A stretch of DNA of 64,000 nucleotides from a virus (lineage: Duplodnaviria > Caudoviricetes). Below the pieces are notes generated by a model that searched no databases, was not told the origin of the DNA, and saw only the letters and a program-made list of their open reading frames with translations. Shown here one piece after another: positions 58,379-62,372 of this stretch; the stretch's first letter is position 1, and the number at the start of each line of letters is the position of its first letter. Location: the IMG/VR virus record IMGVR_UViG_3300036929_000011, positions 1-64,000 of that record, one strand, 5' to 3'. The translations under genes were made by a program, and so were the position numbers.

Positions 58379-59038
58379 TCAGTTGAGAGGTTTATTGAGC
58401 GCTCTCCATTCCTCTGGAGTTCGCGCGTTTTTACTTCGGTTGCATGTACCGCAGGCTGGAACAATGTTCTCAGCGGTAGTTCCTCCACCCCTGGAAACTG
58501 GTATGACGTGATCTTGTTCCATCTTTCCACTGGTTCCGCAGTAGGCACAGCGCCCCTGATACAGTTCGAGGATCGCCGCCCACTGTTGCACCGTTAGGGT
58601 GGCAAGGGAATTGGCCAATCTAGCCCTTCTCCGATTCCCTACTGTACGGACAATTTCACGTACCTTTTCCGGATTTGCCGCCCGCCATCGCGCATTGCTT
58701 GCCTTTACTTGTTCACGGTTCTGCTGATAGTAGAAGCGTTGCTGGGCAAGAATGATTTGCTTACGTTTCTGATATGACGCTCGGGCCTTCTCACGACATT
58801 CATCTATGCGCTCCTCTCTTTGTTTTTTGGCCCTCTGACATCGTTCTTTCAGATGTGCCCTGGACCATTCGAGAGATCGCTTTTTGTTCAGCTCTACGTA
58901 TTCAGCCGACTCGCGACGTTTTTTCTCCTTGATCTGCATGCATTCCGCACAGTACGCGCTGAGTCCGTCACGCCGAGACGCGTGCCGACGAAATCCCTCC
59001 TTCGGCTTATCTCGCTTGCATGATGGACAGTGCTTCAT
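58379..59038 (-). CDS. Free-standing HNH endonuclease with N-terminal Zn finger
   Basis: CPSC..DGL..YCAEC; CAYCG..DHVIPVSRGG..NIVPAC..CN.SK; lower GC than flanks. Confidence 0.9.
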   Translation of the reverse strand: MKHCPSCKRDKPKEGFRRHASRRDGLSAYCAECMQIKEKKRRESAEYVELNKKRSLEWSRAHLKERCQRAKKQREERIDECREKARASYQKRKQIILAQQRFYYQQNREQVKASNARWRAANPEKVREIVRTVGNRRRARLANSLATLTVQQWAAILELYQGRCAYCGTSGKMEQDHVIPVSRGGGTTAENIVPACGTCNRSKNARTPEEWRALNKPLN

Positions 59039-59044
59039 GGCTCC

Positions 59045-59464
59045 TCAGTTGGCGACAGGAATGTTCAGCGGCGGTCTGCCGCCCGATTGGAAAGCGGAAG
59101 CGTAAGCGTTGATGGGCGCCCCCAGGTTGTCGTAGAGCTTCTGCACCCAGTAGCGGTATTCCCCGCGAAGCTGGTCGGCCTCGTCGGGGTTCAGATCGAT
59201 CTCATCGACTGACCTGGCCACCATGCGGGTCTGGGCCAGCATGATGTTGTTCTCGGTGATGTCGCACTTTGCGACCAGGTTCCGGATGATGGCGATGGCC
59301 GTGTCTGGAATGTGCTCCATCGCCTGCTCGACCAGGAAGGCCGGCTGGGTAGCGGCCGGGATACCCAGAATGATCGCGCTCGCTGGAGTTACCTGCAAAT
59401 ATCCGCCATGATAGCGGATTCTCGCCTTCTCCTCTTCTGTGAGAACTGCGAGCGCCATCGTCAC
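59045..59464 (-). CDS. Head-tail adaptor-like protein
   Basis: LTEEEKARIRYHGGY; after the MCP cluster. Confidence 0.6.
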   Translation of the reverse strand: MTMALAVLTEEEKARIRYHGGYLQVTPASAIILGIPAATQPAFLVEQAMEHIPDTAIAIIRNLVAKCDITENNIMLAQTRMVARSVDEIDLNPDEADQLRGEYRYWVQKLYDNLGAPINAYASAFQSGGRPPLNIPVAN

Positions 59465-59475
59465 CTAGGTCGCGC

Positions 59476-59715
59476 TCAGGCGACCTCCTCAAGCTGCACG
59501 CCCTGCGAGATCAGGGCCTTGATGTCGTACCCGTGACTGGAGATCGTCTTGCCCTTGGTCAGCGTGTAGCAGCTTCCACCGCGCGCAATCTGAGCCTCTT
59601 CCTTCACTCGGAAGCGCTTCTCTCCCGTGCCAGTGCGCATTGACTGCTGCACGGACGGCTGGGTCTCTTCGCTGCGGTTCTGCTGATTGTTGTTCTGCTG
59701 GTTCGGGTTCGCCAT
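59476..59715 (-). CDS. Small head-associated protein
   Basis: AAGGAG SD; Q/N-rich N-terminus; typical gene after MCP. Confidence 0.65.
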   Translation of the reverse strand: MANPNQQNNNQQNRSEETQPSVQQSMRTGTGEKRFRVKEEAQIARGGSCYTLTKGKTISSHGYDIKALISQGVQLEEVA

Positions 59716-60078
59716 GACGTTCTCCTTGATTCCACGAGTGGAAAAGTAGACCAGACGGGAGTCAGAGTGGGTCAGGACGAACGACTGAAGTCGATGTCCT
59801 TACCATAGCGCTAACGCGGCTAGGAGCGTACACCACAAGACTACCCGTCTGGCGTCGCAGACATGAGCGGGTAGGGCCGAAGCCCGCCGTCAACGTGAGC
59901 GACAATGGCAGACCGAAGTCTGCCGCAAGGTCGGAACGAGTCCGACCAGTAATCGAAGGTCCGAAGACCAACGATTTCAGTCCAGCCGAAGCTGGACAGA
60001 ACCTTCGCGGGCACACCCCCGCCGTCGTATGGACGAACGGCGAGGATGATCGGCTCCGCATTGTGGACCTTTCGGCGA
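59716..60078 (-). ncRNA. Highly structured intergenic RNA candidate (363 nt)
   Basis: At least 9 hairpins, four cUUCGg loops, 13-bp long-range helix; no credible ORF. Confidence 0.6.
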
Positions 60079-61443
60079 TCAACTTCCGTGGACACACACG
60101 CTGGCGCGCTTGTAGGTCGCCGGGCTGCTGGTCGCCGTCGCGTCGGTCGGGATCGCCCAGTCGCCTGAGAACGACCACGCGGCCGAGGTCGTCTGCTGGA
60201 GGCGATCCATCGGGGCGCGGAGGATGAGGCGGATACGCTCGGTGAGGATCTGCATGCCGCCGTTGACGACCGAGAACTCGCCGATCTTGCCCTGCACGCC
60301 GGATTCAGAGATGTACTTCGACTCGTCGAGGAACTTCTCTTCAATGGCGCCCTGGCCGGTGACGATCGGGCGGTGAAGAACCACGCCCGCCGGGTTGGTG
60401 GTCTCGAACGCGGTCGTGAAGCCGTCCACCGGGTCTTCGTTGACCGTCGCGGTCGTCGGGCACTCGTTGTTGCGATAGACGGTCGCGCCCAGCAAGAACG
60501 CGATGGCGAACTTGCGATAGTGGATGTAATCGGGCATCGACTGGTTCAGCCGCTGAAACTCGTTGTCGCCGAAGATCTGCGACTGCGAGATCGGGTCGAG
60601 GTGATAGTGGTACGTCCCGTCCTCGTGGGTCGGCACGTTGTCGAACTGCAGCTGGGCGATCTGGGCCCGGATGTCGGCCATCCGGAACTGGTCGGTCGAC
60701 GCGACGTCATCGACGCGCGTGCCGCCGCCCGAGTAGACAATCTGCGAGCGGTTGACCGCGAGCACTGCCTGGCGGTCGAGCGTGGTCACGTTCGCCGTGA
60801 GGGTCAGGGTACCGCTGTGGATCTCATCTCCCGCGATATCGGAAGTGAAGCCAGTGCAGGTATAGGCCACTCCGTTGACTGTGATCGACAGCGGGTTGGA
60901 TGCGCTGACGATGGTCGGGCGGCCATTGAACAGCTTGCGGGTGAATCCCGCGAGGTTCTTCACCGGCATCGCGGTCCCAGGACCGTAGGCGCCATTGGCC
61001 ACGGTGTTGCCCGCGACGTAGCAGTTGTACAGCTTGTCGCGCACACCGCGGTTGATGCTCTGCCCAGCGTGGACACCGAGCTGATGCATGTTGCGCAAAT
61101 ACTGAGAGGCCAGCGTCACGTAGCTGGTCGGCATGTGGGTGTCGATTGAGCGTCCGTACTGCTGCGCCGTCGCTTCCCACTGTTCGATCGGGTACTGGAC
61201 CGTCGGCACTTCCGCGTTCGGATTGATCGGACGCGTGGTTGGTGCGATGAGGCCCGCCCGGGTGAACGTCTGATTCGCTCCCAGGTTCACCGGCCACAGC
61301 TCCGCCACGGCCTCCAGCCGGAAGAGCAGGCGCGGGAACAGAGGGTCGCGGAATGTCCGTTGCAGCGTCCGGTCCTGAATGGCCGAGACGACGCCAGCGT
61401 TGAAACTGGTGTTGACGATTGAACCGTCGGGGAAGTTTGCCAT
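60079..61443 (-). CDS. Major capsid protein, 454 aa
   Basis: Follows scaffold; TLGQ-like QYGRSI..S..LAS.YLRN..LG.HAGQSINR, Y.YHLDP..D pattern of HK97-fold MCPs. Confidence 0.8.
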   Translation of the reverse strand: MANFPDGSIVNTSFNAGVVSAIQDRTLQRTFRDPLFPRLLFRLEAVAELWPVNLGANQTFTRAGLIAPTTRPINPNAEVPTVQYPIEQWEATAQQYGRSIDTHMPTSYVTLASQYLRNMHQLGVHAGQSINRGVRDKLYNCYVAGNTVANGAYGPGTAMPVKNLAGFTRKLFNGRPTIVSASNPLSITVNGVAYTCTGFTSDIAGDEIHSGTLTLTANVTTLDRQAVLAVNRSQIVYSGGGTRVDDVASTDQFRMADIRAQIAQLQFDNVPTHEDGTYHYHLDPISQSQIFGDNEFQRLNQSMPDYIHYRKFAIAFLLGATVYRNNECPTTATVNEDPVDGFTTAFETTNPAGVVLHRPIVTGQGAIEEKFLDESKYISESGVQGKIGEFSVVNGGMQILTERIRLILRAPMDRLQQTTSAAWSFSGDWAIPTDATATSSPATYKRASVCVHGS

Positions 61444-61565: not shown

Positions 61566-62372
61566 CTACATGCCAGGAACATAGCCGTAGCTCCTTTGCC
61601 GGGCGGCGAATTCCTGGGGACTGTCTTCTTCGGCGTTTCTATCCACCGTTGGCTCGCCCGCAGTGGCAGGCTTCGGCTTCACTTCGCCGGTAGCAGTCGA
61701 CTCGGGCGGGGTCGTGGTGGGCGCAACGACTGTCTTGGGCGGGGGCGCCGCTGGGGCGGCGGCAGTCGCGAATAGAACCGGGTGCGTTTCCTTCAGCTTG
61801 CCAAAGAAGGTCTCCGGCTGAAGAGTCGCATCTTTGCCTACCGCACGGGCGAACAGCGTGACCGCGTAGTCTGGATCCGTGATGCCAGCGATGCGCGCCT
61901 CGGCCCTGAGCTCGGCCTCCACGCGGGCGTCGTTGGCATTGCGCAGCCGCTTTTCGAGCTTCTTGACTGCCTGCCCGCCTTCGCGAGTCAGCTTCTCGTT
62001 GCTCTTACGCAGCCTCTCGTTTTCGGCTCGCAGTTGAGCAACGGCCGCGTCAGCGGTGTTGGTAGCCGCCGTCTTGCCGCCACCTGCCGCCACTGTGCCG
62101 CCGGCCTTGATGAGTCTTTCGGCTTCCTCAATCGTGACCCCGGTACGCCGACGAATCTCGGCCGCCGCTTCTCGCTGGACCCGGGCCTTGAACGCGGCCT
62201 CGGGAATCTCGATGATGCCCTTGCGCTTCCCCTGCTGTTGCTGCCCCTGCTTCTTGGGCTTCGGCGCAGCTGCCTGAGCCGGTGGGGCGGCTGGCGGTGT
62301 TACGACAGTCGTTCCCTGTGCCGATGGGTCGGCGTTCGGATCGGGAGTGTTGAGGGGTAGTTGGTCTGCCAT
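61566..62372 (-). CDS. Capsid scaffolding protein
   Basis: Pro/Ala-rich ends, central coiled coil, LKE.HP.LF. Confidence 0.7.
   Translation of the reverse strand: MADQLPLNTPDPNADPSAQGTTVVTPPAAPPAQAAAPKPKKQGQQQQGKRKGIIEIPEAAFKARVQREAAAEIRRRTGVTIEEAERLIKAGGTVAAGGGKTAATNTADAAVAQLRAENERLRKSNEKLTREGGQAVKKLEKRLRNANDARVEAELRAEARIAGITDPDYAVTLFARAVGKDATLQPETFFGKLKETHPVLFATAAAPAAPPPKTVVAPTTTPPESTATGEVKPKPATAGEPTVDRNAEEDSPQEFAARQRSYGYVPGM

Follow-up and report, generated by a model that had tools for sequence, protein, structure and literature searches.

A conserved, elaborately folded non-coding RNA behind the major capsid gene in a family of uncultured phages

Here, we describe a structured RNA encoded in a 64,000-nt stretch of viral DNA (the window), which is part of a 75.5-kb IMG/VR virus record (IMGVR_UViG_3300036929_000011). 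The RNA occupies the gap between the stop codon of the major capsid protein gene and the start codon of a small head gene and, like all the genes near it, lies on the minus strand. It is a real, conserved and elaborately folded non-coding RNA of the sense strand, its fold is under strong purifying selection, and it is specific to this family of uncultured phages, in which it belongs to the head-gene transcription unit. The RNA is a module composed of a long 5′ hairpin (P1), a variable tandem array of hairpins with cUUCGg loops, and a conserved core of ~160 nt that combines a tiered stem, P6, with a branched P7 domain, the latter being probably pseudoknotted. The function that we favour, with belief and doubt in about equal measure, is that of a branched terminator or attenuator between the capsid and neck genes that would also provide a stable RNA 3′ end. 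The parts of the element in the window are as follows, with coordinates given in window positions.

59716..60078, minus strand: the structured RNA as a whole, filling the 363 nt between the capsid stop codon and the start codon of the small head gene.
60014..60048, minus strand: P1, a long bulged hairpin in the variable 5′ part; 76% of cells paired, 4 compensatory pairs.
59999..60006, minus strand: a conserved single-stranded (C)AAGUUC-like motif, in the window GAAGGUUC, just 5′ of P2.
59980..59997, minus strand: P2, a 7-bp cUUCGg hairpin; 4 of 7 pairs compensatory.
59951..59976, minus strand: P3, a two-part hairpin with a cUUCGg tip; 4 compensatory pairs.
59929..59947, minus strand: P4, a 7-bp hairpin with a conserved loop, GACUCGUUC across the closing pairs; 100% paired, 3 compensatory pairs.
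59907..59924, minus strand: P5, a 7-bp cUUCGg hairpin; 4 compensatory pairs.
59854..59903, minus strand: P6, making up the first half of the conserved core: a stem of three tiers, tipped by a cUUCGg loop (59874-59885) and with UACC conserved on its 3′ side; 16 of 18 pairs compensatory.
59750..59853, minus strand: the P7 domain, closed by a 14-bp long-range helix (59839-59853 with 59750-59763) that encloses P7i, P7a and P7b.
59806..59822, minus strand: P7a, within P7.
59774..59800, minus strand: P7b, within P7.
59814..59829, minus strand: candidate pseudoknot, ACGC (59826-59829) with GCGU (59814-59817) in the P7a loop.
59740..59750, minus strand: U-rich tract, UCUACUUUUCC, directly next to the P7 3′ arm; six to nine uridines (U6-U9) in most relatives.
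59725..59746, minus strand: P8, a small hairpin specific to the clade of the window; 93.7% paired, 3 compensatory pairs.
59722..59727, minus strand: Shine-Dalgarno sequence AAGGAG of the small head gene.

A first reading of the window from its letters alone, hereafter the original prediction, had listed a series of hairpins in this gap, all of which are present on the minus strand at the positions that it gave. Four stem-UUCG-stem hairpins, each with a C-G closing pair, fall within 124 nt of the element; the rest of the window, on both strands, contains three, with 4-bp stems and none of them (0 of 3) with a C-G closing pair. The minimum free energy (MFE) of the sense strand is -171.6 kcal/mol, compared with -131.3 ± 5.5 for dinucleotide shuffles (z = -7.4), and the antisense strand folds more weakly (MFE -155.8, z = -5.3).

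The evidence for the fold itself comes from related phages. A search with the capsid protein gave 29 loci from viral contigs (at least 29 full-length relatives), a profile search of metagenomes and viral contigs supplied further loci, and three more came from metagenome-assembled genomes (MAGs). The gap can be aligned by sequence in six loci (L002, L003, L032, L004, L034 and L033), at 65-97% identity, and RNAalifold applied to the MAFFT-only alignment of these with the window (seven sequences) returned 110 pairs, 42 with compensatory changes. In that alignment 94.6% of cells are paired, against 35-47% when the partners are slid by 1-3 columns, and the slid controls contain only 4-7 pairs with double changes. 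A covariance model built on the 3′ core alone (P6 plus P7, 59746-59905) then found full-length matches in L039, L005, L007, L012, L041, L009, L010, L050, L057 and L049. The core alignment of 17 sequences shows compensatory changes at 50 of 54 pairs, with 90.7% of cells pairing against 34-43% in slid controls; because it was fitted to the model, this alignment leans towards structure, yet the margin is still large. The proposal of a sense-strand structured RNA under selection for its fold, which the original prediction had suggested checking by covariation across homologous regions, was thus borne out in both alignments. The same applies to the long-range helix that it described, now P7, in which 14 of 14 closing pairs are compensatory among the 17 sequences and 8 of 14 in the MAFFT-only alignment.

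A second model made from those 17 sequences added L006, L008, L022, L038 and L129, bringing the full-length core matches to ~22 related phage loci, with E values from 1e-40 to 1e-4 and capsid identities from 99% down to 53%. In 728 kb of unrelated viral DNA chosen for carrying the 16-mer of the P6 tip, it made no false match over the full length. Exact patterns were less informative: a 21-mer returned a single, already known locus from viral contigs, being too strict, and of the 80 loci returned by the 16-mer the model confirmed at full length only the known L004 contig, plus a partial match in L167. This last (L167:1798-1870, 73 nt, E = 0.0013) lies on an unrelated 47-kb viral contig and is probably just a P6-like hairpin. 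A nucleotide search of GenBank phages with the region gave no match. The element is single-copy in the 75.5-kb record, on which ground a repetitive extragenic palindrome or miniature inverted-repeat transposable element was rejected.

Conservation is unevenly spread over the module. The invariant letters of the core are found mostly in two CUUCGG loops, in UUnCC before P6, in UCC before P7a and in the P7a loop. The last of these would take part in the pseudoknot, which has moderate support as a candidate: its letters covary across clades (ACGC:GCGU, UCGC:GCGA, CGUG:CACG, CACG:CGUG and CGCG:CGCG), and 7 of 11 distinct sequences pair at all four positions, as many as are reached in 55 of 5000 shuffles. 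The 5′ part is more plastic. The number of cUUCGg hairpins ranges from one to five among the loci positive with the covariance models; P5 is dispensable, being missing in L034, and in L002 an HNH gene and a promoter stand in place of P1. The motif upstream of P2 recurs as CAAGTTC at the matching place in L003, L004, L032, L033, L007 and L009, and the P4 loop reappears on other stems in L015 and L049. At the 3′ end, the 5′ arm of P8 is the U-rich tract itself and the hairpin extends into the ribosome-binding site. Another possible pairing, GUUCU (59998-60002) with AGAAC (59719-59723), overlaps the 3′ end of the Shine-Dalgarno sequence; being invariant, this helix never covaries in the seven-sequence alignment, which speaks neither for nor against it.

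The RNA matches no catalogued family. Against Rfam 15, the region 59300-60500 gave only chance matches at E ≤ 10, all of ≤19 bits, and 14 related loci gave none at the gathering threshold, so the Rfam comparison proposed in the original prediction leaves the novelty standing. ARAGORN found no tRNA or tmRNA genes in the window, and literature searches turned up no description of the element. From IMG/VR, a survey published in 2023 put forward 8,495 candidate structured RNAs (PMC10690425). Our RNA, which may be among them, comes from the same data source and resembles those candidates as a covarying intergenic motif, of a kind often found with a terminator or just upstream of a gene; the survey includes no functional account of such a capsid-downstream element.

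The gap is not free of open reading frames (ORFs): a 99-codon ATG frame runs from 60061 to 59762 on the minus strand and is liable to be taken for a hypothetical protein by gene-calling programs. That the region codes for a small protein is nevertheless hardly credible to us. The frame has an ATG start with a weak upstream AAAGG and is open in all seven close homologues, at identities down to 65%, with indels that stay in frame, such as the 21-nt loss of P5 in L034. Its differences, however, are flat over the three codon positions (17/18/18, 22/22/29 and 38/32/31 in three comparisons); the 22/22/29 is against L004, at a divergence similar to that at which the capsid gene, with its strong substitution bias at the third codon position, shows 61/47/163. 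The ratio of synonymous to nonsynonymous change is equal in all three frames of the element, the substitutions are base-pair compensations, and the ORFs that overlap the RNA in distant clades are unrelated sequences. Given the absence of codon-position bias, we regard the frame as non-coding.

What the element might do is suggested by how it ends and by what surrounds it. The core finishes with the GC-rich base of P7, followed directly by the U-rich tract, and in L039, L041, L050, L009, L007, L010 and L012 a run of U6-U9 comes straight after P7; the tract is weaker in the clade of the window and in L005, L006 and L022. Immediately behind the capsid gene, four relatives without the RNA (L014, L023, L027 and L036) carry a canonical terminator of the hairpin-plus-U type. 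Such a terminator also follows the capsid gene in L022, with the RNA further downstream, and in L008 and L049, where the RNA comes next. The RNA is followed by a start codon after only 6-45 nt in 20 of 21 loci, leaving the downstream genes no room for a promoter of their own; the first of these genes is the small 'MA[NK]...' head gene or, in L041, the 139-aa gene.

In ten loci something intervenes between the capsid gene and the RNA: an HNH gene in L002, L041 and L038 and an HNH remnant in L009, a different gene in L050, L057, L022 and L129, and a canonical terminator in L008 and L049. All of these detached loci (10 of 10), and none of the attached ones (0 of 11), have a sigma70-like pattern, TTGACN-N16-18-NANNNT, in the 300 nt preceding the core, against a background of 0.045 per 300 nt; the second hexamer is mostly nAnnCT, and in L002 the promoter ahead of the RNA reads TTGACA-N18-TAGGCT. 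The window and its clade have no promoter motif upstream of the RNA, the element being mid-operon, and a phage-specific promoter motif present in six copies has none at the RNA, its nearest match, with 2 mismatches, lying inside the small gene.

We favour a terminator or attenuator because of three of these observations, namely P7 with its U-run, the plain terminators that occupy the same boundary in relatives lacking the RNA, and the promoters upstream. Under this proposal, P7 and the U tract would act as a branched intrinsic terminator or attenuator at which a fraction of polymerases stops. The product would be the capsid mRNA, or else a short promoter-proximal RNA, with an exonuclease-resistant 3′ end capped by UUCG hairpins, and read-through would give reduced expression of the small head gene and neck genes, so that the element would set the ratio of capsid to neck expression. 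The weak resemblance of the second downstream gene product to a neck protein fits low-copy products of this sort. In the clade of the window, the weaker U tract would be folded into P8 near the ribosome-binding site, and there the element is probably more an intercistronic stabiliser and translation damper than a strong terminator. The original prediction had noted that none of the UUCG hairpins has a U-tract and had concluded that they are not intrinsic terminators; this stands for those hairpins and does not extend to the element as a whole, where P7 is followed by the U-rich UCUACUUUUCC.

Several points weigh against termination as the whole explanation. Intrinsic terminators have compact stems of ~5-14 bp with a short loop; P7 is no compact local hairpin, closing instead a three-helix domain of ~75 nt, and simple scans of 56-64 kb for terminators and sigma70-type promoters reported nothing in the gap. 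To our knowledge, intrinsic terminators with a branched insert of 100 nt are not a documented class. The U tract of the window has only four consecutive uridines and these are paired in P8. Since relatives manage with a plain hairpin at this boundary, termination leaves the ~160-nt branched core and its invariant letters unexplained. The order in L008 and L049 is terminator, promoter, RNA, gene. In L129 the promoter and the RNA are followed by a canonical terminator separate from the RNA, and two unrelated genes come before the small gene, so that the RNA there looks like a stand-alone promoter-RNA-terminator unit; the arrangements in these three loci would make better sense if the RNA were itself a product or a regulated leader. 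For these reasons, namely the unexplained core, the L008/L049 order and the L129 unit, a trans-acting RNA and a regulated leader are kept as rivals.

According to the first of these, the RNA would be a discrete non-coding RNA (ncRNA) of the phage. It would be freed from the capsid mRNA, or transcribed independently with a promoter and terminator of its own, and would bind a protein or another RNA, for instance to help assemble capsids, take over the host or counter its defences; that it sits among the head genes would be a matter of synteny. We consider this possible rather than probable. The abundant late ncRNA of the original prediction, with its suggested roles as scaffold, sponge, packaging or anti-defence RNA, would be a conjectural form of it. 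The ten loci with promoter-RNA-terminator units, stand-alone in L129, speak for it, as do the conserved loop and junction letters and the candidate pseudoknot, which exceed what a terminator needs, and the variation in cUUCGg number (1 to 5, with 7 motifs in L015) suggests additive, possibly multivalent sites. Set against this are the closeness of the RNA to the following start codon (45 nt or less in 20 of 21 loci), which looks cis-linked, the small downstream protein, which shows no RNA-binding fold, and the nature of UUCG loops, which usually serve as stability caps and not as recognition sites. A more specific version, to which we attach a rather more tentative belief, is that of a new phage ncRNA class whose pseudoknotted core and multivalent cUUCGg array bind protein and act in trans late in infection. 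It may serve head assembly or maturation, or decoy a host defence that senses RNA or capsid, and its terminator-like end may merely set the 3′ terminus.

The second rival is a regulated leader, in which the core would sense a metabolite or a protein of phage or host, or else RNA polymerase itself, as HK022 put RNA does, and would toggle P7 between termination and read-through so as to time expression of the neck genes. The succession of promoter, structured RNA, helix with U-run, and gene is the architecture of an attenuating leader, and the original prediction had proposed a two-state attenuator for the post-capsid genes on the strength of an alternative stem (59841-59874) that competes with the long-range helix. 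The attenuator half of that idea fits P7 with its U-run, the plain terminators and the promoters. The switch half does not hold, the alternative stem not being conserved outside the closest clade: all seven of its pairs (7/7) are present in the window and L032 and six (6/7) in L002, and in L003 a three-way compensatory change keeps both it and P7, but pairs are lost in L004 and L034, the stem is broken in L033 and distant members have no counterpart. No other conserved antiterminator pairing was found, Rfam contains no matching riboswitch or leader, and in the clade of the window the element is promoter-less and mid-operon. We therefore judge a regulated leader unlikely.

The sporadic HNH endonuclease genes around the element raise a further explanation, that the RNA is a guide or cofactor of the nuclease, or belongs to a mobile homing cassette or intron. 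In L002, L041 and L038 the gene immediately before the RNA is an HNH gene, and L009 keeps a remnant of one there; in the window, L012 and L033 an HNH gene occurs a short way downstream. Such genes are nevertheless found in only about 7 of 21 RNA loci, at positions that vary by locus, and none occurs in the fetched range of L003, L004, L005, L006, L007, L008, L034, L039, L049 or L050; that of the window has no counterpart at the same place in L003 and L004. The proteins are ordinary phage HNH endonucleases in which only HNH domains were found, with none of the RuvC domain that a partner of a HEARO or IscB omega-RNA type of guide would have; there is no Rfam match to group I, group II or HEARO RNAs, and the capsid gene and small gene are intact without splicing. 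The sporadic occurrence and differing positions of these genes mark them as homing-type neighbours, not partners of the RNA, and we hold the partnership to be very improbable. A group I or II intron was likewise rejected as a candidate, the capsid protein aligning over its full length with relatives that lack the element and no intron model matching.

Several known systems share features with this RNA. In T7, the terminator T-phi lies downstream of capsid gene 10, and our element is similarly placed at the boundary of capsid and post-capsid genes, with a GC-rich helix abutted by a U-rich tract. Unlike T-phi, its stem is a long-range helix around ~75 nt of conserved, branched and probably pseudoknotted RNA, P6 and the hairpin array precede that stem, and the U tract of the window is weak and paired in P8. 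Bacterial small RNAs derived from 3′ untranslated regions arise from an internal promoter (type I) or by processing (type II), examples being DapZ, CpxQ and SroC. They resemble the present RNA in occurring either as the 3′ tail of an upstream gene or behind a promoter of their own, and in their terminator-like 3′ end; the present RNA differs in being much larger and more structured, with a gene starting 6-45 nt after it. Phage late operons can also begin with leader RNAs, as in the PR′-6S RNA-tR′ region of lambda, and RNA-based antitermination is known from HK022 put. The lambda order of promoter, short structured transcript, terminator and structural genes is matched in ten relatives, whereas there is no similarity to lambda 6S or put in sequence or structure and the window element is mid-operon without a promoter. 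Finally, GOLLD, ROOL and the phi29 pRNA are, like this element, phage-encoded RNAs with an elaborate fold, rich covariation and structural-gene neighbours; our RNA has no Rfam match, is smaller (~200-360 nt) and offers nothing to indicate multimerisation or a link to packaging. A packaging RNA of the phi29 type was rejected on the missing Rfam match and the site between the capsid and neck genes.

Few RNAs are both large and rich in covariation, and unexpected biochemistry has come to light in several classes of this kind. The one described here sits in the middle of the head-gene module of ~22 divergent uncultured phages, some binned with Myxococcales/Deltaproteobacteria, and its design is unusual in that a terminator-like stem encloses a conserved folded domain. 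Were it only a terminator and stabiliser, it would be an instructive case of a phage fixing its capsid-to-neck stoichiometry through RNA, and its modules would supply very stable RNA parts; were the RNA itself the product, it would found a new class of phage ncRNA, whose link to virion assembly or counter-defence could be tested.

The genes around the element in the window, all transcribed in the same direction, are the following.

61566..62372, minus strand: scaffold-like gene, with a weak match to Pfam Phage_scaffold.
60079..61443, minus strand: major capsid protein gene, 454 aa, matching the phrog_1357 major head protein (E = 1.8e-8); upstream neighbour of the RNA.
59476..59715, minus strand: small conserved head-module gene, 79 aa, with a disordered N-terminus and a ~45-aa beta domain.
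59045..59464, minus strand: conserved 139-aa gene, with a weak profile match to PDB 8keg 'Neck gp5' (E = 8e-4).
58379..59038, minus strand: HNH homing-type endonuclease gene, matching Pfam HNH and HNH_5; not part of the RNA.

The 79-aa head gene is the first gene past the RNA in most loci. Its homologues have a highly variable, low-complexity N-terminus (Q/N-, P- or A-rich) of 30-120 aa, followed by a conserved C-terminal beta domain of ~45 aa, RGG..Y.L..GK.ISS.GYDI..L...GV.LEEV; a structure model of the protein had no Foldseek match in the PDB at E ≤ 0.001, and its profile matched no PDB sequence. The 139-aa protein is probably a neck or head-to-tail adaptor protein, judging from the profile match; a Pfam scan of its family returned nothing meaningful and no Pfam family.

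Relatives of the HNH gene of the window (58379-59038) are found at L002:5421-6299, L041:3449-4270, L038:1668-2435, L009:2188-2367 and L012:6441-7076. Most often the HNH gene stands exactly between the capsid stop and the RNA, and a sigma70-like promoter follows each time, which looks like repeated homing into one intergenic boundary with a promoter restoring downstream transcription.

Gaps of 230-500 nt at the same place in more distant capsid relatives (L015:1665-2028, L018:5393-5724, L024:5393-5624 and L082:256-560, and also L074 and L128) hold look-alikes of the element. In the four with coordinates there are up to seven cUUCGg hairpins, a long closing helix with a U tract, and a YCCC...GGGG-UUA hairpin; L015, with 7 CUUCGG motifs, is a probable divergent variant. 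The second model, run on this clade of four with filters off, gave no significant match, and MAFFT and RNAalifold on their 3′ domains yielded no usable consensus. Alike in architecture by eye, these elements may represent a diverged offshoot of the RNA family or constitute a family apart.

Capsid relatives on contigs of 66-88 kb were found in an uncultured Myxococcales MAG (L129/L252) and in Deltaproteobacteria MAGs (L130 and L131), and these were the only ones found in the species-representative genome collection. As a host group, Myxococcales/Deltaproteobacteria is weakly hinted at, by MAG binning only. Upstream of the head module, the TTGACN-N16-18-NANNNT pattern recurs in many relatives, at L002:1081, L003:1115, L004:1064, L005:1102, L008:1011, L010:1132 and L012:1128. 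These copies keep a conserved position ~2.9 kb upstream of the capsid gene start, the counterpart here lying beyond the end of the window, and may represent the head-operon promoter.

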